Below, in pieces: positions 4,820 through 48,334 of a DNA stretch of 51,224 nucleotides. The stretch is from positions 1 to 51,224 of the forward strand of contig PHDQ01000001.1 in NCBI GenBank assembly GCA_002841025.1. The letters run 5' to 3'. Below the pieces are notes generated by a model that saw nothing but the letters and a program-made list of their open reading frames with translations, had not been told where the DNA came from and ran no database searches. Within the stretch, counting starts at the first letter, position 1. Every line of letters begins with the position of its first letter. This DNA comes from Bacteroidetes bacterium HGW-Bacteroidetes-13 (GTDB lineage: Bacteria > Bacteroidota > Bacteroidia > Flavobacteriales > Flavobacteriaceae). The translations under genes and the position numbers were made by a program.

Positions 4820-4902
4820 AAAGGATTTAAAAAATCATTTTTAGTTGTAACATTATTGTATTTATATTTACATATTATAACAAAAACAAAAAATTATTAA
4901 AC

Positions 4903-5670
4903 ATGAAAACATTCAAAACACTATTTATCGGTCTATTTCTTATTGTTTCAGCTTCAACATTCGCGCAAACTGCCGATGAAATTATTTCAAATTATTTTGA
5001 AAATACCGGAGGTTTAGAAAAATGGCAAAACCTGAAAGGAATCAAGATGAGCGCGAAAATAAATCAAGGCGGCATGGAAATTCCGTTAGAAATAATCCAA
5101 TTAACAGGAGGTAAACAAATGACCGTAATTACTTTTCAAGGAAAGGAAATAAAGCAAGGAGTTTTTGACGGGACAACCCTTTGGAGCACCAATTTTATGA
5201 CCCAAAAAGCCGAAAAAAGCGATCAAGAATCAACAGACAACCTAAAACTTGATGCCAATGATTTTCCCGATTCATTTTTAGGATATAAAGAAAAAGGCTA
5301 CACGGTAGAATTGGTGGGAAAAGAAACCATCGACGGTGCTGAAACGTTTAAAGTAAAATTGGTAAAAGAACCCATTACAATAGACGGAAAAAAAGAAGAC
5401 AACGTCACCTACTATTTTTTTGACACCGAAAATTATGTGCCGATTGCCATTCAGTCCGAAATAAAATCCGGTCCAATGAAAGGCCAAACATCCGAAATAA
5501 AATTAAGCGACTATCAAGAAGTAGATGGTTTTTATTTTCCCTTCACAATGATTCAAGGACTCAAAGGGCAGGCAGGACAACCGTTAACACTTGATAAAAT
5601 AGAGTTGAATCCGACAATTGATAACGCTTTGTTTTTATTCCCGGAAGAAACATCGTCTTCAAAAAACTAA
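4903..5670 (+). CDS. Secreted protein, LolA-like / outer-membrane lipoprotein-sorting fold (tentative)
   Basis: 255-aa ORF with a cleavable signal peptide (MKTFKTLFIGLFLIVSASTFAQ). Its composition and length resemble LolA-like beta-half-barrel proteins. The family assignment comes from memory only. Confidence 0.55.
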   Translation: MKTFKTLFIGLFLIVSASTFAQTADEIISNYFENTGGLEKWQNLKGIKMSAKINQGGMEIPLEIIQLTGGKQMTVITFQGKEIKQGVFDGTTLWSTNFMTQKAEKSDQESTDNLKLDANDFPDSFLGYKEKGYTVELVGKETIDGAETFKVKLVKEPITIDGKKEDNVTYYFFDTENYVPIAIQSEIKSGPMKGQTSEIKLSDYQEVDGFYFPFTMIQGLKGQAGQPLTLDKIELNPTIDNALFLFPEETSSSKN

Positions 5671-5744: not shown

Positions 5745-8700
5745 ATGAAAAACTATTTTTTACTGTTGGCTTGTTTTTTTGTTTTAAACAATTTTTCTTC
5801 TTTTGCTCAAAATACAAACACCATTGATGCGAAAGATTTATTTGGCGATCTTCGCGCCAGGCACATCGGTCCTGCATTGATGAGTGGAAGAATAAACGAT
5901 CTTGAAACACACCCCAAAAATTCACGCATCATATATGCAGGTGCGGCCGGCGGTGGTGTTTGGAAGTCTAACGACGCGGGCACAACTTTCAATCCTATTT
6001 TTGACAAATACGCCCAGTCAATCGGTGCGATTGCAATTGACCCAAATGATCCGGATAACACGGTTTATGTAGGTACCGGTGAGACTTGGACAAGAAACAG
6101 CGTTTCTATCGGAGATGGATTGTACAGGACAAAAGACGGGGGTAATTCATGGGAAAAATTAGGTTTTGACAAATCAGAACGCATCGCAAATATCATCATC
6201 AATCCCAACAACTCAAGCGAAATTTATGTAGCTGTACTCGGCGCACTTTGGTCAGACAGCGATGAAAGAGGAGTTTATAAATCGACTGACGGCGGTGTTT
6301 CTTGGACTAAAACTTTGTATGTAAACTCGAAAACGGGTTGTTCAGACTTGGTCATCGATCCAAAAAATCCAAACGTGCTCTACGCGTCCATGTGGGAATT
6401 CAGACGAACAGCTTGGTCTTTTGAATCGGGAGGAGAGCAAAGTGCATTATACAAATCCATCGATTCAGGAAAAACATGGAATAAGATACACAACGGCTTT
6501 CCAAATGGAAAATTGGGTCGTTTAGGCGTTGCAATCGCACCTTCTAATTCTAATATCTTATACACCGTTATCGAAGCAGAAGAAGACCTCAGAAAAGGTC
6601 TTTATAGAAGTGACGATGCAGGAGAAAGTTGGAAACAATTGAACAATGATTTCGAAATAACGGTCCGACCATTTTATTTTTCTAGAATTGTTGTAGATCC
6701 CAAAAATCCGGAAGTTGTCGTCAAAGGTGGACTGAGTGGGTCTATTTCGAGAGACGGCGGGAAGACATTTAAAAACCTTGGAAACATGCACAGTGACATT
6801 CACGACGTTGTGTTTGACATTCATGATTCAGACAGGATGTATGTTGCCACAGACGGTGGCGTTTATCGCTCGTGGAATGGTGGGACTACCATGGAAATCG
6901 TCGAAAATTTACCGGTATCGCAGTTTTACCAAATAAGCTTGGACGATGCAGAACCTTATAACATTTACGGCGGTCTGCAAGACAATGGCTCTTGGTACGG
7001 ACCTTCCTCATCTGAAGGCGGCATCAATGCAAAAGATTGGAATGCCATCGGTGGTGGAGACGGATTCAGGGTTTTAAAACATCCAACAAAGAACATCATT
7101 TATTCTGAAATGCAAGGAGCTGAAAACGTTTGGCGATATGATGTTGACAATAAATTAGTAAAAACTATTCAGCCATTGCCGTTGGAGGGATACGCCAAAT
7201 TGCGGTTCAATTGGAATGCGCCGATGGCTGTCAGCAATTTCAAACCAGACAGAATTTATATCGGAAGTCAATTTCTCCACAAATCGGATGACAAGGGAGA
7301 TACATGGAAAATAATTTCTCCAGATTTGACTACCAATGACAAAACAAAGCAAGAACAAGAAAACTCCGGCGGATTATCTATGGACAATTCGGGAGCCGAA
7401 AATCACACAACTATTTTTACGATTGCCGAATCTCCGTTGGATGAAAACATAGTTTGGGTAGGTACCGATGACGGAAATGTTCAAGTGACAACCGATGGCG
7501 GTAAAACGTGGACGAATACAGTTGCTAATATAGTCGGATTGCCTAAAAACACCTGGACTTACCACATCGAAGCAAGCTCACACGACAAATCTACCGCCTA
7601 TGCCGTTTTTGAAGGACATGCACATGGTGATATGAATCCTTACGTTTTCAAAACTAAAGACTTGGGGAAATCATGGACTAATATCATCACAGCAGAAGTA
7701 ACCGGTTTTGCCAGAAACATTCAAGAAGATTTCGTCAATCCTGATTTGCTTTTTCTGGGAACAGAATTCGGGTTATACATAACCTTAGATGGTGGAAAAA
7801 GCTGGAGTAAATTCACCAACAATATGCCATCTGTTGCGGTTCATTTTATTGATTTACATCCCAAAACAAATGATTTGGTTTTGGCGACACACGGACGCGG
7901 GGTGATTATTATCGATGACATTTCTCCTTTACGCGAAATTTCACCTGAGACACTCAATGAAACCTTGCACTTTTTTACATCCAAACCCAAAGTAATGGTT
8001 GATCAGAGCGGATTTTCAGACAGTTTTGGCAGTGAAACAGAATTCGTTGGAAACAATCCATCTACTTCAGCACAAATTAAATATCTCTTGCCGAAGCGAC
8101 ACACTTTTGGCAAAATGACCATGGAAATACAAGATTTAGAAGGCAATAAATTAACAACCATTGATCCCGGAAAATCTAAAGGAATCAACATTGTCAACTG
8201 GAATTTCACCATCAAACAACCGAAAGTCGCCAAAGGGAAAACCTTTAGTTTTGGTGGATTTACTTCTCCGCGTGTCAAAGAAGGAAAATACAAAGCTGTT
8301 ATCGTAAAAGGAAAAGATACTTTCGAACATGTATTTGAGGTGATTTATGACAAGCGTGCCGGATTGACCGAAACCGACAGAGCATTCAAATACAAAATAA
8401 CCATGAAAATGTATGACATGACTCAACAGTTGGCTTATTTAGTTTATGAATTGGATGCTACTCAGGAAGCTGTAAAAACAAATAAAAAACTATATGCCTC
8501 ATTTGAAAATCTCAAAAAAACTTTGGTGGTGACAACCGGAGACAATTATGTCGGCTCGGCTGAACCCCAATTGAGAGAAAAAATGTCTGATTTGTACAGC
8601 AAAATCGCAAATAGTTATGACAAACCTTCCAATGCCGAATTAGATTATCTGAAGCTGATTGAAAACCGTTTTGAAAAAGCCAAGACTGACTTTGAAAAAC

Positions 8701-8762
8701 TTAAAGAAAAAGCCAAGGTCAAAATTCCGCTCAAAACTTTTGACGATTTCGTCAATGAATAA
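5745..8762 (+). CDS. BNR/Asp-box repeat, sortilin (VPS10)-like beta-propeller protein, secreted
   Basis: 1005-aa ORF with a signal peptide. It has about 10 Asp-box motifs of the SxDxGxTW type (SNDAGTTF, TKDGGNSW, STDGGVSW, SIDSGKTW, SDDAGESW, SRDGGKTF, SDDKGDTW, TTDGGKTW, TKDLGKSW, TLDGGKSW). Confidence 0.8.
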   Translation: MKNYFLLLACFFVLNNFSSFAQNTNTIDAKDLFGDLRARHIGPALMSGRINDLETHPKNSRIIYAGAAGGGVWKSNDAGTTFNPIFDKYAQSIGAIAIDPNDPDNTVYVGTGETWTRNSVSIGDGLYRTKDGGNSWEKLGFDKSERIANIIINPNNSSEIYVAVLGALWSDSDERGVYKSTDGGVSWTKTLYVNSKTGCSDLVIDPKNPNVLYASMWEFRRTAWSFESGGEQSALYKSIDSGKTWNKIHNGFPNGKLGRLGVAIAPSNSNILYTVIEAEEDLRKGLYRSDDAGESWKQLNNDFEITVRPFYFSRIVVDPKNPEVVVKGGLSGSISRDGGKTFKNLGNMHSDIHDVVFDIHDSDRMYVATDGGVYRSWNGGTTMEIVENLPVSQFYQISLDDAEPYNIYGGLQDNGSWYGPSSSEGGINAKDWNAIGGGDGFRVLKHPTKNIIYSEMQGAENVWRYDVDNKLVKTIQPLPLEGYAKLRFNWNAPMAVSNFKPDRIYIGSQFLHKSDDKGDTWKIISPDLTTNDKTKQEQENSGGLSMDNSGAENHTTIFTIAESPLDENIVWVGTDDGNVQVTTDGGKTWTNTVANIVGLPKNTWTYHIEASSHDKSTAYAVFEGHAHGDMNPYVFKTKDLGKSWTNIITAEVTGFARNIQEDFVNPDLLFLGTEFGLYITLDGGKSWSKFTNNMPSVAVHFIDLHPKTNDLVLATHGRGVIIIDDISPLREISPETLNETLHFFTSKPKVMVDQSGFSDSFGSETEFVGNNPSTSAQIKYLLPKRHTFGKMTMEIQDLEGNKLTTIDPGKSKGINIVNWNFTIKQPKVAKGKTFSFGGFTSPRVKEGKYKAVIVKGKDTFEHVFEVIYDKRAGLTETDRAFKYKITMKMYDMTQQLAYLVYELDATQEAVKTNKKLYASFENLKKTLVVTTGDNYVGSAEPQLREKMSDLYSKIANSYDKPSNAELDYLKLIENRFEKAKTDFEKLKEKAKVKIPLKTFDDFVNE

Positions 8763-8766
8763 TTAG

Positions 8767-8805
8767 AAAAAAGGTCGCGGTAAAAAGCGACCTTTTTTAT
8801 TTTTC
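8767..8805 (+). terminator. Rho-independent terminator after the BNR gene
   Basis: AAAAAAGGTCGC / GCGACCTTTTTT stem (8767-8778 and 8787-8798) with a trailing T-run. Confidence 0.8.
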
Positions 8806-8906
8806 AACATCAATAATCCAGCTTTTTTTACGTATATTTGCCAAAAGCATACATTTTTATTTTTCTCAGAAAATCCTACATTTTCCCAAGCTGTTAGTAC
8901 TTCATT

Positions 8907-8914
8907 TACTTTTG
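8907..8914 (+). promoter_or_regulatory. Candidate -7 box (TACTTTTG) for the cold-shock-domain gene
   Basis: It matches TAnnTTTG about 88 nt upstream of the ATG at 9002. A second match, TATATTTG at 8833-8840, lies about 160 nt upstream. Either one implies a long 5' UTR. Confidence 0.3.
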
Positions 8915-9001
8915 AGCGAATTCCAAATGTTTACTTCAATTATTAGGTGATAGGCTATTCAATTTGAGTAGTTTAGTTAAATTTAAAATCTTAAAATCCG
9001 C

Positions 9002-9460
9002 ATGGCTAAATCGCAGCAAAGTTTTGGTAAAAAAGAAAAAGAAAAACTACGCATAAAAAAGCGTCAGGATAAAGAATTGCGAAAAATTGACCGAAAGGCC
9101 AATGCCAAAGGTGGTGGTTTTGAAAACATGATAGCCTATGTTGATGAATACGGACAAATCACTGACACACCACCAGATCCTTCCAAAAAAATTATAGTGG
9201 ATGTTGAAAGCATCGAAATTGGTGTTCCAAAAAGAGCCAAAGAAGAAGAAGTTGACCCGGTCAAAAAAGGAAAAATTGACTATTTCAATGATTCTAAGGG
9301 CTTTGGTTTTATCAAGGAAAACGGTACCCAAGAAAAATACTTTGTACACGCAAGCGGTATGATTGACGACCTCAAAGAAGGAGAGGCCGTTTCTTTTGAG
9401 TTAGAGAGGGGTATGAAAGGTATGAATGCTGTTCGTGTGAAACGCATAACCACCGGTTAA
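9002..9460 (+). CDS. Cold-shock-domain protein with an ~85-aa lysine-rich N-terminal extension
   Basis: The C-terminal ~65 aa (GKIDYFNDSKGFGFIKENGTQEKYFVHASG...VSFELERGMKGMNAVRV) carries the RNP1-like KGFGFI and VFVH-like CSD motifs. The N-terminus is K/E-rich and low in complexity. Confidence 0.85.
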   Translation: MAKSQQSFGKKEKEKLRIKKRQDKELRKIDRKANAKGGGFENMIAYVDEYGQITDTPPDPSKKIIVDVESIEIGVPKRAKEEEVDPVKKGKIDYFNDSKGFGFIKENGTQEKYFVHASGMIDDLKEGEAVSFELERGMKGMNAVRVKRITTG

Positions 9461-9476
9461 TTTCACTTCCTAAAGT

Positions 9477-9857
9477 CTAACAAATCGTATTGTTTTTTCT
9501 CAAAAAGCTTTCTAATTGGTCGGCAGTTTGCAGACATTTACTGACTTTTTTCGTTTCGCTGCAAGACCTTCCATTTAATTCATGGTGTGACCTGCATTCA
9601 AAGGCAGAAATATCTAATTTTTCAAAGTTTTTATCAATTGCCCTGCATTGTTCATACAATTCGTTAATCGTTGATTTGCTATTGGGAACAACGGCATTAT
9701 GCAATAAAAATCCAATTAGAAAATTTTCAATGGCAAATTGGGCGTTTTTACAAACCATAAAAGAGACTACATCTTCTTCCGGTCTGCAAAGTTCTTCATT
9801 TGCTTCGATCAGTTTTTCAATGGCTTTGTCAAATAATTGATTGGCTTTGGCTTTCAT
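9477..9857 (-). CDS. Hypothetical helical protein, HEPN-like (tentative)
   Basis: 126-aa ORF with charged, helical composition (..NAQFAIENFLIGFLLHN..). The overlapping plus-strand ORF 9490-9840 is S/L-rich antisense noise. No clear Rx4-6H motif and no adjacent nucleotidyltransferase partner were seen. Confidence 0.4.
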   Translation of the reverse strand: MKAKANQLFDKAIEKLIEANEELCRPEEDVVSFMVCKNAQFAIENFLIGFLLHNAVVPNSKSTINELYEQCRAIDKNFEKLDISAFECRSHHELNGRSCSETKKVSKCLQTADQLESFLRKNNTIC

Positions 9858-9896
9858 TTGTTTTGTTTTTTAACGTGAAAAATATACTGTTTATTA

Positions 9897-9904
9897 CAAA
9901 TTTA
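9897..9904 (-). promoter_or_regulatory. Candidate -7 box for the HEPN-like ORF
   Basis: Plus-strand CAAATTTA equals minus-strand TAAATTTG (TAnnTTTG), about 40 nt upstream of the start at 9857. Confidence 0.25.
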
Positions 9905-9942
9905 TCTTGATAGTCAAGACATTGATGTTATCAATAGAACTT

Positions 9943-9984
9943 GGATAACACAGATCTTGACTGGTTGATTGATCTGTGTTATCC
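9943..9984 (-). terminator. Perfect 14-bp inverted repeat hairpin downstream of PFOR
   Basis: GGATAACACAGATC (9943-9956) and GATCTGTGTTATCC (9971-9984) are separated by a 14-nt loop. A second 7-bp hairpin CTTGAAC/GTTCAAG lies at 9988-10013. There is no clean U-tract. Confidence 0.35.
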
Positions 9985-36458: not shown

Positions 36459-36532
36459 ATGGATTTTAGGACTTATCAAATGTATTTTAGTGCCCTTTAA
36501 AACACAAAAAAATCTTACATTTAAACTTTCCA

Positions 36533-37744
36533 ATGAAAGACATCAATCTATCTATTCACGTCAAAATTGCCCTGCTTTATCTGCTGATTGTCGCTGTTTT
36601 GGGGACAAGCCTCAGGTTGTTCGTCGTGGTTGATATTCCGGCAACCTATCGATTTTTGGTACACACCCATTCGCATATTGCCCTTTTGGGTTGGGTGTAT
36701 TTGGCACTGACAACCTTGCTGTACAAATTGTATTTGGAAAAAGAAAATGTAGCCAAAACCTATCGGCGAATCTATGGGTTTACCCAATTTTCTTTACTCG
36801 GTATGTTGTTGAGTTTTCCATTTCAGGGTTATGCCTTGTTTTCAATAGTTTTTTCAACTTTATTTTTGATTGCCAGCTACTTTTTTGCCTGGTTGTTTTG
36901 GACAAAAACAGCAGGGGAGACCCGAGAACTTCTATCCTACAAAATGATAAAATCGGCACTGGTTTTTATGGTGGTTTCGAGTGTGGGACCTTGGTCTTTG
37001 GGCATCATCATGAATACTTTGGGCAGTTTGTCTATTTGGTATAAACTGTCAATTTATTTCTACCTGCATTTTCAGTACAACGGCTGGTTTATTGTGAGTT
37101 TATTAGGGCTGATGTTTTGTTTTTTGGAACAAAAAAACATTAAAATTTCAATTAACCACAGGTCGTTTCTGTGGTTACTCAACAGCAGCGTGGTGTTGAC
37201 TTTTGCCTTGTCTGTTCTTTGGACAAAACCTATAATATTACTTTATATAATAGCGTTTATAGGTTCTGTTTTACAGTTAGTTGTATATTTTATAATTATT
37301 CTTAAATTGAGGACTGGTTGGCAATTTTTCTCACAAACCCTCAAGCCGGGCGTTACGCGTATGTTGCGGATCGCTTGCTTTTTTTGGTTCGTAAAAATGT
37401 GCCTGCAACTGCTGACGGCTTTTCCGTATTTTGCCGATTTGGCCTTTCAAAATTTAGACTTTGTGATTGGCTATTTGCACTTGGTTTTTTTGGGCGTTGT
37501 GACGATTTCGCTTTGGGCTTTTTTAAAACAAACAGGGTTACTCACAATCCCGAAGTTTACTTTTGCGCTTTTTCTGTCCGCGTTTGTTGTAACGGAATGT
37601 TTACTTTTCTACAAAGGCTCGGCAGCTTGGCTGGGATGGCCGATTTTTGATGTGTATTTTACCGTCTTGGCAGTAGCGAGTGCTTTGTTTGTGGTATGCG
37701 TGTTGTGGGTGTTGGTTGGTGGGAAAAAGAATGCGGTTTGGTGA
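36533..37744 (+). CDS. Polytopic membrane protein of unknown function with repeated His-containing TM motifs
   Basis: 403 aa with about 10-12 predicted TM helices. Motifs are HTHSHIALLGW, LHFQYNGWF and YLHLVFLG. Any resemblance to NnrS-type heme/copper membrane proteins is only tentative. Confidence 0.6.
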   Translation: MKDINLSIHVKIALLYLLIVAVLGTSLRLFVVVDIPATYRFLVHTHSHIALLGWVYLALTTLLYKLYLEKENVAKTYRRIYGFTQFSLLGMLLSFPFQGYALFSIVFSTLFLIASYFFAWLFWTKTAGETRELLSYKMIKSALVFMVVSSVGPWSLGIIMNTLGSLSIWYKLSIYFYLHFQYNGWFIVSLLGLMFCFLEQKNIKISINHRSFLWLLNSSVVLTFALSVLWTKPIILLYIIAFIGSVLQLVVYFIIILKLRTGWQFFSQTLKPGVTRMLRIACFFWFVKMCLQLLTAFPYFADLAFQNLDFVIGYLHLVFLGVVTISLWAFLKQTGLLTIPKFTFALFLSAFVVTECLLFYKGSAAWLGWPIFDVYFTVLAVASALFVVCVLWVLVGGKKNAVW

Positions 37745-37988
37745 TTGATGGATTTTAGAAAGAAGTCACCTCGTACATAAAAGTTTATTTGTACTATAAT
37801 GTTCTGTGTTATGTAACTTGAGCTTTGGTTAAAAGTGAAAGTTGTTACTACAGTTTCTTAAAAAAAAAATTATTCTCAAAGGATTCTTCTATAGTGCTAA
37901 TGAACACTTATTTTGCTGACTGACGAAAGGAGGGAAGTGTAATGTGTGAGGAATGGGAAACTATATAAATATATCTCTTCATTAGCTG

Positions 37989-38184
37989 TTATAGTGGAAA
38001 AAATTCCCTATAATTTAATTTATAATAGAAAATACTAGTACTCAGTCGCTCTTATAATGATTATAATGGAAAATATTCATTTTCAAATATTATTGTTATA
38101 ATGGAATTTATTCTCTAAATAATACTTTATAATGGAAAATTATATGTATTTTTGAATACTAAAGCAGTTTAAATGGAAAATATT
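37989..38184 (+). repeat. Array of ~7 direct repeats TTATAATGGAAAAT(A/T)TT upstream of, and overlapping, the fic start codon
   Basis: Copies start at 37989 (TTATAGTGGAAAAAATT), 38020 (TTATAATAGAAAATACT), 38052 (TTATAATGA), 38061, 38096, 38127 and 38168. The last, TTTAAATGGAAAATATT, contains the ATG at 38173. Spacing is mostly 31-35 bp. Confidence 0.85.
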
Positions 38185-39654
38185 CTACAGATTCATCTTC
38201 AAGAAGTTATTTTTTCTTCAAGTGACAAAAATTTAAGTAAACAAATATCTAAATTAGAAAAAGCTGGAGAAATCAGAAAAATTGCTCCAAGAATATACAC
38301 ATCAAACTTAATTGATGAGCCAGAAGTAATAATAACTAAAAATATTTTTACAATACTTGGTAAATTATATCCGAATTCTGTATTAAGCCATAGATCAGCT
38401 TTAGAATTCAAACCAACAAGTGCAGGTCATATTTTCGTTACATATACATATACAAAAAAAATTAAACTACCTGGAATTACAATCCGTTTTATGGAAGGAA
38501 ATGGTCCAATTGAAGGTGATAATCTTTTCTCTGGAGAACTATTTGTTTCACAACAAGAAAGAGCATTTCTTGAAAACTTACAAGTTTCTAGACAACCAGG
38601 ACCTGAATCCAAAACACTAACATTACCTGAAATTGAAGCTAAATTAGAGCAAATAGTACGCATAAATGGTGAGGATGAAATAAATAAAGTTAGAGATAAT
38701 GCAAGAGTAATTGCCGAAAAACTGGGAATGCAAAGCGAATTCGCTAAATTAAATAGACTAATTAGCGCTTTATTAACTACAAAACCCTCAAAAATATTAA
38801 GTTCACCAATAGCTATGGCAAGGGCTTTTGGAAATCCTTATGATCCAGCTAGAATATCATTATTTGAAACATTGTTCCAGCATCTTAAACGAAATGAATT
38901 TGGTAATTTTCCGGAAATAAATACAGACAAAACAGCATTTAAAAATTTTGCGTTTTTTGAAACCTATTTTTCAAATTATATTGAAGGAACAATTTTCGAA
39001 TTAGAAGAAGCGAAAAGTATTATTAAAACAGAAACTCCAATTGCTAATAGAGATGAAGATTCCCATGATGTTTTAGGGACATACAGAATCGTTAGTAATT
39101 TAAAAGAGATGAATAAAACTCCTGCAACACAAGATGAACTTTTAAACATACTCCAATATAGACATCACATTCTTTTAGAAGCTAGAAAATCAAAAAAACC
39201 AGGTCAATTTAAAGATAAAAATAATAGAGCAGGCGATACGCATTTTGTTGATTTTAATTTGGTAAGAGGCACTCTTATTAAGGGATTTGATTATTATAGG
39301 GCATTAAATAACCCATTTGCGAAAGCTGCATATATAATGTTTATGATTAGTGAGATTCATCCATTTCTAGATGGGAATGGAAGAATAGCTAGAGTAATGA
39401 TGAATGCGGAACTTGTAAAAGAAAAGCAAACTAAAATAATTATCCCAACTGTATATCGTGATGATTATTTAGGTGCATTAAGGCGTTTAACAAGGCAGAA
39501 AGACCCAGTTGCCTATGTAAATATGTTACAAAGAGCTCAAGAATTCAGTTCTACTATAAAAGCAAACGATATGAAGGAAGCAGAAATGCATTTAGAGGCT
39601 TGTAACGCTTTTAAAGAACATGATAAAGCTGTGCTTAAAATAATTAAAACATAA
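38173..39654 (+). CDS. Fic-family (AMPylase-type) protein: AbiEi-like wHTH N-terminal region + autoinhibited class II Fic core
   Basis: The Fic motif HPFLDGNGRIAR is at aa 396-407 (nt 39358-39393). The inhibitory-helix motif SNYIEG = (S/T)xxxE(G/N) is at aa 267-272 (nt 38971-38988). The N-terminal ..LSKQISKLEKAGEIRKIAPRIYTS...VLSHRSALEF resembles AbiEi antitoxin domains. The gene is markedly more AT-rich than its neighbours. Confidence 0.9.
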   Translation: MENILQIHLQEVIFSSSDKNLSKQISKLEKAGEIRKIAPRIYTSNLIDEPEVIITKNIFTILGKLYPNSVLSHRSALEFKPTSAGHIFVTYTYTKKIKLPGITIRFMEGNGPIEGDNLFSGELFVSQQERAFLENLQVSRQPGPESKTLTLPEIEAKLEQIVRINGEDEINKVRDNARVIAEKLGMQSEFAKLNRLISALLTTKPSKILSSPIAMARAFGNPYDPARISLFETLFQHLKRNEFGNFPEINTDKTAFKNFAFFETYFSNYIEGTIFELEEAKSIIKTETPIANRDEDSHDVLGTYRIVSNLKEMNKTPATQDELLNILQYRHHILLEARKSKKPGQFKDKNNRAGDTHFVDFNLVRGTLIKGFDYYRALNNPFAKAAYIMFMISEIHPFLDGNGRIARVMMNAELVKEKQTKIIIPTVYRDDYLGALRRLTRQKDPVAYVNMLQRAQEFSSTIKANDMKEAEMHLEACNAFKEHDKAVLKIIKT

Positions 39655-39756
39655 AGGAAAGAAGAATTATTCTGTTAGAAATATAGTTAGGATGTGTATT
39701 AAATGGTTTTCCAAAATTTATTACAAATTAAATGAACTGTAAACGTAAAGTTGCTG

Positions 39757-39814
39757 TAACATAACATCTGACGATATAAAACACAAAAGTGTTATTATAT
39801 CTGATGTTATGTTA
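39757..39814 (+). other. Long imperfect hairpin downstream of fic
   Basis: TAACATAACATC (39757-39768) pairs with GATGTTATGTTA (39803-39814). An inner GATATAA/TTATATC stem and an apical AACAC-aaaa-GTGTT stem are also present. There is no U-tract. Confidence 0.5.
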
Positions 39815-39888
39815 AATACTACGGAATTCGCTATTTTATGTATGCAATCAATTTGTTCTATAATTTATATTATGTAAAATAGAATGTT

Positions 39889-40015: not shown

Positions 40016-41785
40016 TTATTTTCCACCGTCTGCAATCCATTTGTCAATTTTGGTTTCCAACAAGCTCAACGGCAAACTTCCGGACATCAGAACTTGGTTG
40101 TGAAACTTGCGGATATCAAACCGATCTCCCAATTCTTTTTCAGCTTTGGCTCTGAGTTCACGAATTTTTAGCTGCCCAATTTTGTAGGACAACGCTTGTC
40201 CGGGAATTACCATATAACGCTCAATCTCCGCGATGATGCTTTCTTTGCTTCTCGCTTCATTTGCCAACGAATAGTCGATGGCTTGTTCGCGTGTCCAACC
40301 TTTGGCATGCAGCCCCGTGTCAACCACCAAGCGAATGGCTCTGTGCATTTCGGCACTCAACATTCCGAAATATTGGTATGGGTCTTCGTACAAGCCCAGT
40401 TCTTTCCCCAAGGATTCGGCATACAAAGCCCAACCCTCGCCATACGCGCTGTACCAAAGTGTTCTTCTGAATTGCGGCAAATCCTGATTCTCTTGTTGAA
40501 TCGACACTTGATAATGATGCCCGGGAATGGCCTCATGCAAAAACAAATCTTCATCCGAATAGTAATTGTAGGTTTTTATATTCGGAATCGGTACGTAAAA
40601 AATACCCGGTCGTGTACCGTCTAACGATCCTTGATTGTACTCCGCACTCGCAGAGGCTTCCCTGAAAGCTTCGGTGCGGCGAACTTCAAATTGGGTTTTG
40701 GGTTTTAAGTCAAACAGCTTTTCCAGATTGGGCTTCATCCGTTCGTGGATGGCGTTGAAATTGGCAATCACTTGCTCGGGCTTGGTAAACGGTATGAGCT
40801 CTTTTTTGTTTCTCACAACATCAAAAAACGAAATTAGATCACCTTTGTAGCCGACTTCTGTCATCACTTTTTGCATTTCTGCGGAAATTCTGGTTACTTC
40901 GCTCAATCCCAATTGGTGAATTTCTTCGGCAGTCAAATCGGTGGTGGTGTAATATTTTATCCAATATGTATACAATTCCTTGCCGTTCGGAATGCCTTCT
41001 ATTCCCGATGTTTCTCTGCCGGCGGCCAAATAATCGGTCTTGACGTATTCTGTGAGTGCGTGCAAACTCGGAATGAATTTATCGGTCAAAAAAGCGCGAT
41101 ATTCTTCTGTCAGTTCAGATTTTTGACCTTCGGTGAATGTTTTCGGGAAATTTTTCACCGGCGAATAAAACAAATTGTCTTCAACAGGCGTTTTGCTGAA
41201 CTCAACCAACTGCGGAATCATTTTCACAATCAAGGTTTTGGGTAAAACGATTCCCTCCTTCACACCTTTCCGCATATTGGCTTGCGCCGTGTCTATCCAA
41301 ACAGTGAATTTTTCCAATCTTTTGAGCCAATTTCGGTAATCTGTAAATGTTTTAAAGGGTTGTGCCCCACTCCCACTGCCCAATTGTCCCATCGTGAGCT
41401 GCAAAGATGAAAACTGATTGATTGGCATCAACTCGTTTTTAAAATCAAAACTGTGAATGTTTTCATCCAACTCCCACAACAAGATGGCTTTGCTCGTTTT
41501 TTCTTCCGCCGACAGTTTGTCATCCGGATACTGATTGAGCGAATCCTTAAAATTATTGAAAACGGCCAGAGCTTCGGTCTTATAAGCTTGTGTTAAGTTG
41601 TTGGGCAACAAATCGTTGTATCGATTGTCTCCGGCAAATGTAGCGTTCAGCGGATTGAGCTTCAGCGATGCTTCGTAATACGAATCAAACAGTTTGTTGA
41701 TGGGAGGCAATTCAGCTTTTTGTTCCTTTTTACAAGAAACAGAGAAAAGCAGGCAAGCGGTTAGTCCGAAGATTCGTTTTTTCAT
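40016..41785 (-). CDS. DUF885-family lipoprotein (metallopeptidase-like)
   Basis: 589 aa with lipobox LLFSVSC|KKE. LHEAIPGHHYQ is the hallmark DUF885 motif. Confidence 0.85.
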   Translation of the reverse strand: MKKRIFGLTACLLFSVSCKKEQKAELPPINKLFDSYYEASLKLNPLNATFAGDNRYNDLLPNNLTQAYKTEALAVFNNFKDSLNQYPDDKLSAEEKTSKAILLWELDENIHSFDFKNELMPINQFSSLQLTMGQLGSGSGAQPFKTFTDYRNWLKRLEKFTVWIDTAQANMRKGVKEGIVLPKTLIVKMIPQLVEFSKTPVEDNLFYSPVKNFPKTFTEGQKSELTEEYRAFLTDKFIPSLHALTEYVKTDYLAAGRETSGIEGIPNGKELYTYWIKYYTTTDLTAEEIHQLGLSEVTRISAEMQKVMTEVGYKGDLISFFDVVRNKKELIPFTKPEQVIANFNAIHERMKPNLEKLFDLKPKTQFEVRRTEAFREASASAEYNQGSLDGTRPGIFYVPIPNIKTYNYYSDEDLFLHEAIPGHHYQVSIQQENQDLPQFRRTLWYSAYGEGWALYAESLGKELGLYEDPYQYFGMLSAEMHRAIRLVVDTGLHAKGWTREQAIDYSLANEARSKESIIAEIERYMVIPGQALSYKIGQLKIRELRAKAEKELGDRFDIRKFHNQVLMSGSLPLSLLETKIDKWIADGGK

Positions 41786-43911: not shown

Positions 43912-44058
43912 AATTATTGATTGGTATTGGTTTAATTGTTGGCAACAATGGTAAGTTCTATCACTACGAAATACCACAGAGAGACTTGAAAACGAATCTA
44001 TCACGAGCCTAAATGATTGACAGTAAATATTGTTTAAATTTGGAGCAAACTAAAAAAT

Positions 44059-44388
44059 ATGGAAAGGCGTTTTTCTGACATTATTCAACTAATAAAACAA
44101 TCTCGGACTAATGCACTAAAAACCGTTAATGCTGAACTGATTAATCTTTATTGGAATACGGGAGAGTTTATTAGCAAGAAACTTGAGCTTGCCGAATGGG
44201 GTGATTCCGTGGTTACAGAATTAGCAAAATACATCCAAAAAAACGAGCCAGACATAAAAGGTTTTTCTGACAAAAACCTATGGAGAATGAAGCAATTTTA
44301 TGAGTCATACAAAGACTTTCCAAAACTCTCAACATTGTTGAGAGAAATTAGCTGGTCTCACAATTTGGCTATTTTTTCAAGATGTTAG
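44059..44388 (+). pseudogene. N-terminal stub of a DUF1016 (YhcG-type PDDEXK nuclease) gene
   Basis: The 109 aa ..NAELINLYWNTGEFISKK...GFSDKNLWRMKQFYESY...ISWSHNLAIF match the N-terminal helical domain of ~340-aa DUF1016 proteins. The nuclease domain is absent, and only 121 nt remain before the next gene. Confidence 0.7.
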
Positions 44389-44509
44389 CAGTTAGCTTTT
44401 GACCTTTTTAAAGAATAATTTCACATCCAATTCATAAATAGACTAACGGCTAAAAGCCAACAGTCAAAAGCCATTAAAACAACAGTAAACCCAATTATTA
44501 GAATCAAAA

Positions 44510-45259
44510 ATGAAAAAAATCTTGCTATCCTTATTGATACTGACAAGCTTTGTTGCTTGCAAAGAGAAACCCCAACCATTGACCGTTCAGCAAATTGTCG
44601 ATCAAGCCATTGAAAAAGCGGGTGGCAACTTGTATGAAAAGGCTCACATCGAATTTGATTTCAGGAAAATTCATTACCTCTCCACGCGTCAGGGAAGTAA
44701 ATATTCCTACGAACGGGTGCAAACAGATTCAACCGGAAGAAAAATTCACGATGTATTGACCAACAAGGGTTTTGAACGATTTATAAACGATTCGTTGGTG
44801 CAAGTAGTCGATTCGATGGCTAACAAGTATGCCAATTCGGTCAATTCAGTTCATTATTTTGCCTATCTCCCGTACGGACTCAATGACAAAGCAGTTCACA
44901 AAAAATTGTTGGGTGAAAAAACCATCAAAGGGAAAACGTACTATCAAATTGAAGTGACTTTCTCCGAAGAAAACGGCGGAGACGACCACAGCGATGTATT
45001 TCTGTATTGGATAAACAAGGAAACTTTTTTGGTGGATTATTTAGCCTATCTCTACCACACGGATGAAGGCGGAATCCGTTTCAGGGAAGCCTTTAATCCA
45101 AGAGCTGTAAACGGCATTAGATTAGTCGATTATAAAAATTATAAACCCTTTTCGGAAGACATTGATTTCTATCAAATCGGTGAACTTTTCGATGCGGGAA
45201 AATTGGAATTGTTATCTGAAATCGTGAATGAAAATGTGACGGTTAAGATCGTTGAGTAG
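44510..45259 (+). CDS. Hypothetical lipoprotein
   Basis: 249 aa with lipobox SFVAC|KEK. Confidence 0.7.
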   Translation: MKKILLSLLILTSFVACKEKPQPLTVQQIVDQAIEKAGGNLYEKAHIEFDFRKIHYLSTRQGSKYSYERVQTDSTGRKIHDVLTNKGFERFINDSLVQVVDSMANKYANSVNSVHYFAYLPYGLNDKAVHKKLLGEKTIKGKTYYQIEVTFSEENGGDDHSDVFLYWINKETFLVDYLAYLYHTDEGGIRFREAFNPRAVNGIRLVDYKNYKPFSEDIDFYQIGELFDAGKLELLSEIVNENVTVKIVE

Positions 45260-45284
45260 TTATAGATTATTTTAAGAAAGCAAC

Positions 45285-45737
45285 ATGTCCCCATTAAAAC
45301 CACAACGCAGTCCTGTATTGGAAATTTACACTGCCAACACGCAGACTGAACTCGAATTGCCGCTGCTTCCGTTTGCAATAAGTGCAGGTTTTCCCTCACC
45401 GGCATTGGATTTTATCGACTTAGGAATTGATTTAAACAAGCATCTCATTGAGCACCCGTCGGCTACTTTTTACGGACGCGTACAAGGTGAATCTATGCGC
45501 GATGCCGGTATAAATGATGGGGACCTTTTGATAATTGACAAAAGTATTGAACCTGCGGACGGTAAAATTGCCGTTTGCTATCTTGACGGAGAGTTTACGC
45601 TAAAACGCATAAGGCTAAGCAAACAAGGATTGTGGCTTATGCCTGAAAACGAAGGGTATCAGCCCATAAAAATAGAAGCGCACAATGATCTAAAAATTTG
45701 GGGAGTTGTTACCTTTATCGTCAAGAAACCACGGTGA
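45285..45737 (+). CDS. umuD: UmuD-like S24 autopeptidase (Pol V accessory subunit)
   Basis: 150 aa with the Ala-Gly cleavage context [11 protein letters not shown], catalytic Ser in GESM and Lys in FTLKRI. There is no DNA-binding domain. Confidence 0.88.
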
Positions 45738-46996
45738 TGTTTGCCTTAATTGACTGCAATAATTTTTATGCTTCCTGCGAGCGGGTTTTTCGTCCGGATC
45801 TTGTTGGAAAACCCGTTGTGGTGCTTTCCAACAACGACGGCTGTGTAATAGCGCGAAGTAGCGAAGCGAAAGCCATTGGCATTCCGATGGGTGCGGCAGC
45901 GTTTGAATATGAGAAAATGTTTAAACAAAACAACGTGCATGTTTTTTCCGCAAACTTCGCTTTGTATGGCGATATGAGCCAACGGGTAATGGATATTTTG
46001 AGCGGTTACAGCCCCGAAATAGAAATTTACAGCATTGATGAAGCGTTTTTGAAACTAAAAGGTTTTGAAAAATTTGACCTGCAAAAATACGGTGCCGAAA
46101 TGCGCTATAAGGTACAAAAATGGACGGGGATTCCCATCAGCGTTGGCATTGCGCCCACCAAAGCATTGGCAAAAGTTGCCAATAAAATTGCAAAAAAATA
46201 CCCGAAAGAGTTGCAAAATGTGTACATCATTGACACAGAAGAAAAGAGAGCAAAAGCCCTGAAATGGTTGAAAATAGAAGATGTTTGGGGCATTGGCAGA
46301 CAACACAGCAAACGCCTGAAAGCGATAAATGTAAACACGGCTTACGATTTCACACAACTGGACGATGCGTGGGTAAAAACACATTTGGCAATCGTTGGTT
46401 TGCGGTTAAAACACGATTTGTCAGGTATCCCGACACTGGATTTGGAAGAGGTGCAACCGAAGAAAAATATTTCAACCGCACGCTCATTTGAAAACAATTA
46501 TACCGAATTGGAGCAATTGCGGGAACGGATTGTAACTTTTGCCGTTTCCTGTGCCGAAAAATTGCGCAAACAAAATTCTTGCTGCAATTCTTTAAGGGTA
46601 TTTATCCATACCAACGAACACCGAAAAGATTTACCGCAATACAGCCGAAACATGGTAATAAAATTGCCATTCCCAACCAATTCAAGTATGGAGTTGGCAA
46701 CATTTGCAAATTTGGCATTACAAAAGATATTCAGAGAAGGCTATCACTACAAAAAAGCCGGTGTAATCGTGCAAGATTTTACGCCCGAAAACACGCAACA
46801 ACTGAAACTATTTGAAAGCAGAAATGAAAAACACATTCCGCTCATGCAGGTGGTGGATAAGCTAAACAAAAGTTACGGTCAGCAAAAAATACGACTGGCC
46901 GGACAAGACATAAAACGAATTTGGAAAATGAAACAAGAAAAATTATCGCCTCGCTACACAACCAAATTATCCGACATCATAACCATTCACTGTTAA
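45737..46996 (+). CDS. umuC: Y-family DNA polymerase V catalytic subunit UmuC
   Basis: [41 protein letters not shown] is the canonical UmuC N-terminus. Its ATG overlaps the umuD TGA (TGATG). The ORF-track start at 45698 adds 13 unlikely residues. Confidence 0.92.
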
Positions 46997-46997
46997 T

Positions 46998-47060
46998 ATG
47001 TGTTTTCATTCAAAACAATCTAAATCGGCACAAGCATTGAAGCATCGTTTCAAAGTCTAA
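46998..47060 (+). pseudogene. 20-codon stub of an SOS-response-associated peptidase (SRAP/YedK-like) gene
   Basis: ATG TGT TTT CAT... encodes MCFHSKQSKSAQALKHRFKV*. It starts 1 nt after the umuC stop. The Met-Cys start and the ..A..L..RF pattern match SRAP N-termini. The reading frame ends inside a 9-bp hairpin. Confidence 0.5.
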
Positions 47061-47076
47061 TCCCTGCGGGATTAGA
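47056..47076. other. 9-bp perfect hairpin between the SRAP stub and the aminotransferase gene
   Basis: TCTAATCCC-tgc-GGGATTAGA. It may act as a bidirectional terminator for the convergent umuC and aminotransferase transcripts. Confidence 0.5.
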
Positions 47077-47149
47077 ATTGACCTAAATGACTGGGGCGCG
47101 CTTAATTCGCATATAATAATCTTGAAACAAATAGGCGTTTAAAATCTGC

Positions 47150-48334
47150 TTAGGAAACTGCTTCCTTGATTCTTTTTAAGGCTTCTGTCAATTCTTCGGT
47201 AGAAGCTGCGTAAGAAATTCGGATACAATCCTTGCTACCAAAAGCATCGCCGGTTACGGTTGCCACATTGGCTTCTTCCAACAAATACATGGAAAAATCG
47301 TCAGAATTGTTAATTTTTTTTCCTCTGAGGGTTTTGCCAAAGAATGAAGACACATCCGGAAACACGTAAAATGCACCTTCCGGTACGTTGGTTTTGATAC
47401 CGGGAATTTCGTTGAGCAAACCCAAAACCAAATCTCTTCGGACTTTAAATGCATCCACCATATATTTGACACTGCTCACAGGGGCGAGAAGTGCCGCGAT
47501 GGTTGCGCGCTGCGCGATGCTATTGGCTCCTGAAGTGATTTGACCTTGTATTTTATTACAGGCATCGGCAATCCATTGTGGCGCACCGATGTATCCGATT
47601 CTCCAACCGGTCATGGCAAATGCTTTTGACACGCCGTTGACGGTAATGGTGCGTTCGTACATGCCCGGAATGGTGGCTATACTTGCATGACCTCCCACAA
47701 AGTTGATGTGTTCGTAAATCTCATCAGAAACCACAAAAAGATTGGGGTGTTTCAAAATGACTGCTGCCAGTCCTTCAAGTTCCGCCCGGCTGTAAACAGA
47801 GCCTGTCGGATTGCATGGCGAACTGAAAATAATCAGTTTGGTTTTGTCGGTAATCGCTGCTTCCAATTGCTGTGGTGTGATTTTGAAATCGGAATCTATA
47901 CTGGTAGGAACTTCAACCGGTTCTCCATCGGCTATTTTAACCAAGTCGCTGTAACTCACCCAATACGGTGCAGGTAAAATTACTTCGTCACCGGGATTCA
48001 ACATGACCAAAGTGATGTTTGCCAAAGATTGTTTGGCTCCTGTTGAAACCACAATTTGATTGGGTTTGTAATCTAAAGTATTGTCTCTTTTAAATTTTAA
48101 AGAAATGGCTTCGCGCAAATCTTGGTAACCGTTGACTGGCGAGTAAGAGCTGTAGTTTTGGTGAATTCCTTCGATGGCGGCTTCTTTGATAAAATCCGGT
48201 ACATTGAAGTCGGGTTCGCCCAAACTCAATCCGATGATGTCTTTTCCGGCAGCTTTAAGTTCACGCGTTTTTGCGGCCATTGCCAAAGTTGCAGACGTAG
48301 CCAATTTGTTGATGCGATCTGATAACAAATTCAT
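47150..48334 (-). CDS. Class I PLP-dependent aminotransferase (aspartate aminotransferase-like)
   Basis: 394 aa with the PLP-lysine context VNGVSKAFAMTGWRIGY and the SSPCNPTG motif. Confidence 0.9.
   Translation of the reverse strand: MNLLSDRINKLATSATLAMAAKTRELKAAGKDIIGLSLGEPDFNVPDFIKEAAIEGIHQNYSSYSPVNGYQDLREAISLKFKRDNTLDYKPNQIVVSTGAKQSLANITLVMLNPGDEVILPAPYWVSYSDLVKIADGEPVEVPTSIDSDFKITPQQLEAAITDKTKLIIFSSPCNPTGSVYSRAELEGLAAVILKHPNLFVVSDEIYEHINFVGGHASIATIPGMYERTITVNGVSKAFAMTGWRIGYIGAPQWIADACNKIQGQITSGANSIAQRATIAALLAPVSSVKYMVDAFKVRRDLVLGLLNEIPGIKTNVPEGAFYVFPDVSSFFGKTLRGKKINNSDDFSMYLLEEANVATVTGDAFGSKDCIRISYAASTEELTEALKRIKEAVS

Follow-up and report, generated by a model that had tools for sequence, protein, structure and literature searches.

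The window examined here, a 51,224-nucleotide (nt) stretch of contig PHDQ01000001.1 (assembly GCA_002841025.1) from Bacteroidetes bacterium HGW-Bacteroidetes-13, contains an AT-rich islet at 37745-39888, in which a single gene encodes a 493-residue protein that joins an N-terminal module remotely resembling the AbiEi regulators to a predicted class II Fic enzyme. An earlier reading of the sequence (hereafter the original prediction) had described an AT-rich segment of about 2.1 kb with one open reading frame (ORF) of 493 amino acids (aa) and no adjacent partner gene, integrase or tRNA, and the description is borne out. The ORF, which starts with ATG, is the sole sizeable one between a membrane-protein gene and a DUF885 gene. 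The G+C content (GC) of the 2,144-nt islet is 0.287 against a window mean of 0.398 (standard deviation 0.029, in 2.1-kb windows), the lowest of any stretch of that size within the 51 kb, and the GC at third codon positions (GC3) is 0.156 in the ORF as against 0.46-0.53 in four neighbouring genes, a clear signature of foreign DNA. No tRNA was found across the window and no integrase in or adjoining the islet, while its 5' and 3' spacers contain no small partner ORF, antitoxin RNA or Rfam family, the ORFs there being of 32 aa or less. The gene, its parts and its flanks are as follows.

36533-37744, plus strand: membrane-protein gene, 403 aa, upstream flank of the islet
38173-39654, plus strand: 493-aa ORF, AbiEi-like module fused to a predicted class II Fic domain (ORF list, profile and structure searches)
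38206-38367, plus strand: predicted winged helix-turn-helix (wHTH), residues ~12-65 (structural model, PADLOC AbiEi, AbiEi_4 in relatives, hhalign)
38380-38577, plus strand: predicted beta-rich second domain, residues ~70-135, including SHRSA (secondary structure of the model, Foldseek, hhalign)
38578-38907, plus strand: predicted helical domain or linker, residues ~136-245 (helices at 151-240 in the model; conserved in the family)
38929-39582, plus strand: Fic/Fido fold, residues ~253-470 (Pfam Fic, PADLOC, Foldseek)
38971-38988, plus strand: inhibitory-helix motif SNYIEG, residues 267-272, with Glu271 (motif; FICD alignment)
39358-39393, plus strand: Fic active-site motif HPFLDGNGRIAR, residues 396-407, with His396 (motif)
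40016-41785, minus strand: DUF885 gene, downstream flank of the islet

The C-terminal half is, as judged from profile searches and structural models, a class II Fic enzyme with AMP transfer as its predicted activity. Pfam Fic (PF02661) matches residues 327-413 with 54.3 bits (cut-off 24; E-value 2.6e-14), and HPFLDGNGRIAR fits the canonical active-site motif HxFx(D/E)GNGRxxR. The SNYIEG motif fits the pattern (S/T)xxxE(G/N) and is located in the same chain, N-terminal to the Fic core, with a distance of 125 residues from Glu271 to His396; an inhibitory Glu placed N-terminal to the catalytic His in the same chain is reportedly what the 2012 classification of Engel et al. terms class II. Both motifs had been pointed out in the original prediction at these positions, and both are widespread in the family: among the 67 full-length proteins present in the 150 best-scoring N-terminal-module representatives listed, the canonical Fic motif is found in 56 and SN[YF]IEG in 61. 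Of the solved structures, FICD is the closest by sequence (8e-9, residues 259-452), in an alignment that places SNYIEG over the inhibitory TVAIEGN and also takes in the active-site loop. The PADLOC models SoFic and PDC-S04 (the latter a PADLOC candidate label) match residues 262-470 at 1e-18, the SoFic match being limited to model positions 60-274 of 361. Comparison of the Fic half of the first AlphaFold2 (AF2) model, m582514ffcaf2, with the PDB using Foldseek returned FICD, Fic-1, SoFic, CccR (7xux) and BT_2513, each at probability 1.00. Membership of the full-length SoFic family is not indicated, with NCBIfam ProtAdlyltaseSoFic at 22.4 bits (cut-off 550) and the C-terminal wHTH of SoFic type unmatched, only ~45 residues following the Fic fold. 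Nor does the protein belong to a class I FicT/FicA or a Doc/Phd pair, the inhibitory motif being in cis and no conserved small ORF lying nearby; the Doc and VbhT models gave marginal, partial matches only.

The N-terminal 245 residues are less readily placed, and sequence profiles and structural modelling together suggest a remote AbiEi homologue that falls below every curated AbiEi threshold. The peptide KLEKAGEIRKIAPRIYTS occupies residues 27-44 and VLSHRSALEF residues 70-79. No Pfam family matches residues 1-250 of this protein, the AbiEi models AbiEi_1, AbiEi_3, AbiEi_4 and DUF6088 included, and a search of PDB sequences with a profile built from the N-terminal half gave no significant match. 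Weak signals were obtained with eight PADLOC AbiEi models, which match residues ~8-103 (best 8.6e-6, residues 15-95), and in relatives, where Pfam AbiEi_4 matches five of 41 diverse N-termini of the family below or near threshold (best 2.3e-5). A search of residues 1-245 against 1.84 billion cluster representatives gave 1,092 matches at E-values of 1e-3 or below. The first AF2 run had used a shallow alignment (72-100% identity) and residues 1-150 were unusable, with a predicted local distance difference test score (pLDDT) below 50; the N-terminal half was re-predicted from a 41-sequence alignment reaching down to 32% identity. The resulting model, md8f844f38f70 (residues 1-244, nt 38173-38904), has a pLDDT of 94.3 and a predicted template modelling score of 0.86, and consists of a winged helix followed by a beta-rich domain and a helical domain, with residues 1-11 disordered; the arrangement of the domains in the full-length protein gave no confident model.

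The top PDB match of this model by Foldseek is the Streptococcus agalactiae AbiEi 6Y8Q (probability 0.98, 208 columns, 195-aa chain), no other match being convincing. A genuine AbiEi encoded near one member of the family (locus L004, 3721-4329; PADLOC AbiEi 6e-72, Pfam DUF6088 4e-75) was matched by the N-terminal profile using hhalign, against this single sequence as template, with 84.6% probability and an E-value of 6.9e-6 over residues 16-108, thus reaching into the second domain. The AbiEi resemblance of the N-terminal half is judged to be real on the evidence of profiles and model, although the predicted fold of the winged helix and second domain agrees with that of AbiEi without deciding the matter. 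The claim of the original prediction that residues 1-240 are AbiEi-like is accordingly upheld with respect to the wHTH, the 6Y8Q match and the hhalign alignment, and has to be restricted to a remote similarity that fails the curated thresholds. An ordinary helical Fic_N extension devoid of a wHTH, which it had named as the contrary outcome, was not seen, as a winged helix is present in the pLDDT-94 model. The PDB matches of md8f844f38f70 that rank behind AbiEi are nucleotidyltransferases, of AbiEii type or other, namely JHP933 (4ok0, 4o8s; E-values 0.01-0.05), ANT(2'')-Ia and Hailong HalB. The helical domain at 136-245 has no Pfam match and no PDB sequence match, and the N-terminal model gave no Foldseek match among the viral structures of BFVD. 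In view of these weak nucleotidyltransferase matches, residues 70-240 were also considered as a degenerate AbiEii-type nucleotidyltransferase, and this is not supported, as hhalign against a genuine AbiEii gave 0.35% and the hG[GS]...DxD motif is lacking.

The strongest functional clue is a conserved, phased, operator-like array upstream of the gene. Six plus-strand copies of TTATAATGGAAAAT (up to 2 mismatches) begin at 37989, 38020, 38061, 38096, 38127 and 38168, in keeping with the repeats placed at 37989-38184 by the original prediction, and no other site in the window matches within 2 mismatches. The repeat unit is a ~20-bp quasi-palindrome, TTATAATGGAAAATATTTTC, and its copies are 31 to 41 bp apart. 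The units and the promoter box are listed below, with scores of the position weight matrix (PWM) described thereafter.

37989-38002, plus strand: operator-like unit 6, offset ~-184 from the ATG; 2 mismatches, PWM 23.3
38020-38033, plus strand: operator-like unit 5, offset ~-153; 1 mismatch
38061-38074, plus strand: operator-like unit 4, offset ~-112; exact match
38096-38109, plus strand: operator-like unit 3, offset ~-77, equivalent to the -73 site of the family; 2 mismatches, PWM 22.6
38127-38140, plus strand: operator-like unit 2, the -42 site; exact match, PWM 21.1
38147-38154, plus strand: putative Bacteroidetes-type -7 promoter box TATTTTTG (TAnnTTTG; sequence and recurrence in related loci)
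38168-38181, plus strand: operator-like unit 1, the -1 site, over the start codon; 2 mismatches, PWM 21.9

Loci from 80 different species were taken for comparison, and alignment of their upstream regions on the ATG places a unit at fixed positions -73, -42 and -1, with further copies across the family near -105 to -107, -148 and -180; the layout is thus seen again in over 60 loci non-syntenic with the window. A PWM of ~25 bits was built from the -73 and -42 copies (consensus TTaTAaTGGAAAATATTTTCtA, quasi-palindromic core GGAAAATATTTTCC) and applied to 66 of the loci, where it gave 174 plus-strand and 6 minus-strand hits within 320 nt upstream of the genes and only 3 in the remaining ~1.6 Mb. 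Positions -73/-74 are occupied in 40 of the family hits and -41 to -43 in 48, and the -1 position is matched in 30 of the 66 loci; given the training set, only the hits at -1, those far upstream and the absence elsewhere are independent, a restriction to which we return below. At 31 and 41-42 bp, the spacings approximate three and four helical turns, which places the units on the same face of the DNA.

In Bacteroidetes, promoters are characterised by -33 and -7 elements, the latter with the sequence TAnnTTTG. An exact TAnnTTTG begins at -27/-26 in 23 of the 66 loci, as compared to ~1.6% expected by chance. From these positions the -42 unit would lie between the predicted -33 and -7 elements and the -1 unit just past the transcription start. 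These Bacteroidetes-type boxes were searched for in place of sigma-70 promoters and terminators, the scan for which was uninformative, with counts equal to those in shuffled sequence. Unit 1 contains the start codon and encodes M-E-N-I, and the -1 unit implies that the N-terminal peptide M-E-N-I-L-P is dictated by the operator sequence. The synonymous sites of codons 2-6 are constrained: third-position conservation is 0.76 there and 0.52 in later codons (0.57 where the amino acid is conserved).

In distant subfamilies (L091, L090 and L093) the 31/41-nt layout is kept with other unit sequences. The L091 member, 38% identical, has CAAATGTTTGCAAA units at ~-44, -74, -105, -182 and -212, in an array that shares a 107-nt super-period with that of the window; in the high-GC member L090, two ...AAGTTGAC units lie at a spacing of 31 nt; and the copy on a Phocaeicola plasmid (52% identity) shows TCTTATCAGACTnnAAATGGT units at spacings of 32 and ~42 nt, followed by TATTTTTG. 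Four unit types were seen in the family, namely TGGAAAATATTT, CAAATGTTTGCA, TCTTATCAGACT and AAGTTGAC. Unit sequence thus co-varies with the protein at fixed geometry, as expected if the protein recognises its own promoter, which speaks against a regulator supplied by the host. The layout is the signature expected of autoregulation, with binding of the units by the AbiEi-like module as a prediction from sequence. Two other explanations of the repeats, as plasmid-type iterons or as alternative start codons, were discarded in view of the fixed distance to the ATG in chromosomal, plasmid and prophage copies, the co-variation with the protein and the varying frames of the upstream ATGs.

The segment is a horizontally acquired one-gene cassette, and what moves can be delimited from comparison with other loci. 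Loci that are non-syntenic with the window share nucleotide sequence with it: L084 (Polaribacter) is 93% identical over 37790-39648, L001 91% over 37990-39648 and L002 85% over 37898-39648. Homology to non-syntenic loci extends from the repeat region to the stop codon and no further, which indicates that the mobile unit consists of the operators and the gene. The flanking genes of the window are shared by none of the 80 species-level loci, and there is no conserved neighbourhood. The site itself is a replaceable cargo slot. In L096, which is closely related to the window at the protein level (SmpB 98%, DUF885 88% and BNR 91% identity), collinearity with the window holds up to 36467 and from 39854 on, and the cassette is missing; its slot (7902-9968, 2.07 kb, GC 0.34) carries MarR, a gamma-glutamyl cyclotransferase-like GGACT protein, DUF2024 and a 76-aa ORF as alternative cargo, in place of the 403-aa membrane protein and the Fic cassette found in the window.

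36468-39853, no strand assigned: variable cargo slot, from the BNR/sortilin-like gene to DUF885 (collinearity with L096)
37790-39658, plus strand: horizontally shared unit, operator/promoter region and Fic gene (nucleotide homology to non-syntenic loci)
39757-39814, no strand assigned: long imperfect hairpin with 26-nt arms and a 6-nt loop (inverted repeat I4), in the 3' spacer of the Fic gene

The hairpin may serve as the terminator of the cassette. It is unique to the window among the family loci, homology to the others stopping at ~39650, and its lone Rfam match, to a microRNA model, lies below threshold and is attributed to chance. No Pfam family is matched by the polytopic membrane protein of 403 aa. 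Its gene has host-like codon usage (GC3 0.46), yet is absent from L096, and is annotated in the near-identical contig L081 as a pair of ORFs of 262 and 127 aa; this gene may be further variable cargo or in decay. Elsewhere in the window, at ~44000-48000, the annotation of L081 and L082 indicates a 109-aa ORF with DUF1016_N only, a few kb past SmpB and probably a truncated YhcG-like nuclease, together with a UmuD/UmuC-like pair (Peptidase_S24 and IMS) and DUF6503; the DUF1016_N fragment and the UmuD/UmuC-like pair may be what is left of a further insertion, mobile or SOS-related.

The cassette belongs to a large and unnamed family with thousands of members rather than being a rarity. More than 5,700 relatives were obtained in the protein search, and at least 598 species-level loci in the genome scan, the latter distributed in the Flavobacteriales, Chitinophagales, Sphingobacteriales, Cytophagales, Bacteroidales and Saprospiraceae. 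Nearly all of the best 120 relatives are 490-498 aa long (the exceptions being one of 516 aa and a 425-aa partial sequence) and at least 72% identical, and those bearing a name mostly go by no more than 'Fic family protein' or 'hypothetical protein'. The N-terminal half of the family is spanned by no Pfam or NCBIfam model, and in the collection of literature searched no description of an AbiEi-like module joined to Fic was found. Ten of the eleven full-length representatives devoid of the canonical Fic motif were scanned with Pfam, and eight of these have a degenerate Fic domain and two no Pfam hit; fusion of the N-terminal module to effectors other than Fic was thereby discarded, as none of the ten carries another effector domain, all being degenerate or truncated. 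The members lacking the catalytic His include P0125, P0126, P0137, P0159, P0237 and P0240, in all of which the N-terminal module is kept, and in several the inhibitory Glu has also been replaced (by D or S).

The genomic contexts of the relatives include plasmids, an integrative and conjugative element (ICE), a prophage and defence islands, and so the architecture is not confined to housekeeping surroundings, the contrary case envisaged by the original prediction.

Flavobacterium gilvum: type I restriction-modification (R-M), GmrSD, IS21, integrase
L085: caspase-WD40, STAND NTPases
L084: HEPN-RES
L088 (an ICE): TraG, RadC, SSB, HsdS, HEPN
L090: GASH conflict-system gene
L091 (prophage): moron position between the tail tube/chaperone and tape-measure genes
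21 plasmids: including those of Bacteroides/Phocaeicola, Hymenobacter and Novosphingobium (pNL1)

The pNL1 copy adjoins VapBC and integrases. The L091 member (4001-5470, 489 aa; also in L092) is located within a block of phage tail genes and has a six-unit upstream repeat array of its own. The two nearest ORFs on each side were scanned at 36 loci with PADLOC at 1e-10 or better, and matches to 186 families were obtained in ~20 of the 141 ORFs, as against 34 families in ~4-5 of the 91 ORFs, mostly of kinase type, around DUF885 loci, a control that is small and partly redundant. Defence genes are thus moderately enriched near the family. The matched neighbours include SoFic-type Fic (4), MADS (3), PDC-S01, PbeA, a type IV restriction enzyme, methyltransferases, QatA, an AbiEi/AbiEii pair and PrimPol. 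The four SoFic-type ORFs among the 141 (loci L002-L079; PADLOC SoFic up to 4e-121) indicate that the two Fic architectures are sometimes adjacent; two of the 141 also match DUF4172.

Three characterised proteins provide the basis on which a mechanism can be proposed. AbiEi represses its own operon by way of promoter repeats (PMC3985639). CccR of Yersinia pseudotuberculosis, a class II Fic protein (SARIEG) with a helix-turn-helix (HTH), represses its own promoter via repeats at -35/-10. The toxicity of its Fic domain results from AMPylation of FtsZ, and CccR is toxic when expressed in E. coli (PMC9755527). SoFic binds ~100 bp upstream of its own start codon, AMPylates EF-Tu and has been described as a constitutive deAMPylase (bioRxiv 10.64898/2026.07.09.737422); it becomes toxic upon mutation of the inhibitory Glu (E73G) (bioRxiv 10.64898/2026.07.09.737422; PMC12249575), and for the E. 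coli Sofic a phage defence of abortive-infection type and a small downstream antitoxin, AS1, have been reported (PMC12249575).

By analogy with these relatives the cassette probably functions as a self-repressed toxin or anti-phage module, and the reading that we favour, with somewhat better than even confidence, is that of a horizontally acquired, self-repressed Fic toxin cassette built from an AbiEi-like regulator and a class II Fic enzyme. Binding to its own repeats, toxicity, target, trigger and phage defence are the parts of this mechanism that we infer because of what is established for AbiEi, CccR and SoFic. The AbiEi-like winged helix would bind the ~20-bp units arrayed upstream through their GGAAAATATTTTCC core, and the location of the units on the same face (31 and 41 bp) would favour cooperative, oligomeric binding. 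With units between the -33 and -7 elements and over the start codon, binding would stop transcription of the gene itself, resulting in tight negative autoregulation and very low expression, while Glu271 would keep the Fic site off in cis by barring productive ATP binding. The inhibition would be lifted by a trigger, for which infection by a phage, loss of the element and an altered oligomeric or DNA-bound state are candidates, and the freed enzyme would AMPylate an essential host protein and arrest growth.

Several observations weigh against this reading or parts of it. The AbiEi relationship is remote, the curated cut-offs having failed and the Pfam AbiEi models being silent on this protein: NCBIfam TAA_AbiEi scores 13.6 bits (cut-off 150), the Foldseek match to 6Y8Q has an E-value of 2.4e-3 and template modelling scores of 0.32-0.38, and hhalign against a second genuine AbiEi aligned only 23 columns of the helix-wing core. 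The closest solved sequence, FICD, is an enzyme that reversibly AMPylates and deAMPylates, and its role is physiological, not one of killing. The catalytic His is replaced (by C, K, Q, N or R) in ~10 of the 67 representatives, which shows that catalysis is not always needed and suggests, for such members, either a catalysis-independent function (as repressor only or decoy) or decay of the toxin. The neighbours in the window and in many other loci are housekeeping genes among which the cassette forms an isolated islet, and tblastn of ~50,000 isolated phage genomes found no member of the family. To these are to be added the partial circularity of the PWM and the size and redundancy of the neighbourhood control.

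A more far-reaching form of the proposal, which we regard as possible though doubtful, is a toxin/regulator system of type IV-like character in one polypeptide, in which the operator array, beyond its part in repression, would act as a scaffold that holds an inactive DNA-bound oligomer, from which release, or a phage-induced change of the oligomer, would lead to AMPylation and abortive infection. The AbiEi-like second domain would here be the in-cis gate, and the family would be a widespread, hitherto unrecognised anti-phage family of the Bacteroidota and Proteobacteria, its promoter and gene being carried together as one unit by plasmids, ICEs and prophages.

The protein could instead be a physiological regulator, a transcription factor that reversibly AMPylates and deAMPylates a host protein, in the manner of FICD with BiP or SoFic with EF-Tu, to tune translation or stress responses and that is mobile with no part in defence or addiction. 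FICD as the best PDB sequence match, with retention of the inhibitory Glu that FICD uses in deAMPylation, would agree with this, as would the description of SoFic as a constitutive deAMPylase and possible transcriptional or translational regulator, the location of many loci, including that of the window, among housekeeping genes, and the retention of the DNA-binding module in catalytically degenerate members. However, the operator motif occurs practically only before the gene itself (the 3 hits in ~1.6 Mb elsewhere), with no regulon in the flanks. The patchy, horizontal distribution, the foreign codon usage, the carriage on plasmids, ICEs and at a moron site in a prophage tail module, and the enrichment of defence genes nearby also argue against it, and we consider it rather unlikely.

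Still less probable in our view is a selfish addiction or stabilisation module, a fused toxin-antitoxin (TA) that persists by post-segregational killing or hitch-hiking and has no anti-phage role. The autorepression layout is typical of TA loci (cf. AbiEi, CccR), relatives occur on an ICE and on 21 plasmids, with VapBC and integrases beside the pNL1 copy, and the gene stands alone with no sensor partner. However, one polypeptide cannot provide the difference in stability between toxin and antitoxin that classical post-segregational killing needs; several loci are situated in recognisable defence islands (R-M, MADS, Qat, AbiE), and the related single-gene SoFic protects against phage. That the gene is one half of a two-component system whose small antitoxin or partner (of AS1 type or a class I FicA) is missing or unrecognised is very improbable, for although the E. 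coli Sofic has AS1 downstream and the Fic gene is followed immediately by a small hypothetical ORF in two plasmid loci, homology across non-syntenic loci ends at the stop codon with nothing co-conserved downstream, the spacers in the window hold only ORFs of 32 aa or less and no Rfam family, and the inhibitory helix is already within the protein.

The self-repressed toxin cassette that we favour would be of interest in several respects. It is only recently that Fic proteins fused to a DNA-binding domain, namely SoFic and CccR, were demonstrated to be self-regulated toxins and phage-defence proteins. In these the winged helix is at the C-terminus, and an AbiEi-type N-terminal module joined to Fic would represent a different solution to the same pairing and a mechanistic link between the AbiE-type and Fic-type nucleotidyl-transfer toxins. 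Retention of spacing with changing unit sequence offers a direct model for the evolution of wHTH specificity and cooperative binding. The cassette could also add a single-gene defence or addiction module for the Bacteroidota, in which, to our knowledge, such systems have been little studied.

Comparison with the known systems helps define what is shared and what is new. With AbiE, a type IV toxin-antitoxin and abortive-infection system, the cassette is linked by 6Y8Q as the top PDB match, by the remote profile match into the second domain, by the presence of repeats in the promoter and by the order of the components, regulator first and nucleotidyl-transferring toxin second. The proposal in the original prediction that a Fic domain has taken the toxin position of an AbiE system agrees with this order; the replacement itself, an evolutionary event, is not established by it. 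Unlike in AbiE, no AbiEii (DUF1814 nucleotidyltransferase) is adjacent, a Fic domain being covalently fused instead; the protein has an extra helical domain (136-245) and scores far under the curated AbiEi thresholds, and its operators are direct arrays of quasi-palindromes in contrast to the one long inverted repeat of AbiEi. Among solved structures, FICD/HYPE and C. elegans Fic-1 come closest in sequence, the inhibitory helix and the active-site loop included, but these eukaryotic enzymes are reversible regulators of BiP resident in the endoplasmic reticulum, with an N-terminus of tetratricopeptide repeats and a membrane anchor and no DNA-binding domain.

CccR likewise combines a class II Fic domain with an HTH and is among the structural matches of the Fic half. 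Its HTH is, however, C-terminal, whereas the one described here is N-terminal; as operator it has a single pair of inverted repeats, each of 10 bp, with 26 bp between them; and it is an effector secreted by the type VI secretion system, while nothing in the present protein suggests secretion. SoFic is a single-gene class II Fic protein with the inhibitory Glu ~125 residues before the catalytic His and a fused winged helix, all features found here. The wHTH of SoFic is C-terminal, whereas here it is N-terminal, within a ~245-aa AbiEi-like module; SoFic has one operator site as against 2-6 phased units, and EF-Tu as a target, whereas in the present protein only the Fic core of SoFic is matched and no AS1-like small gene is present. 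In function the cassette may thus be likened to SoFic and CccR, and it would differ from both in its N-terminal AbiEi-type regulator, its additional helical domain and its multi-unit phased operator.

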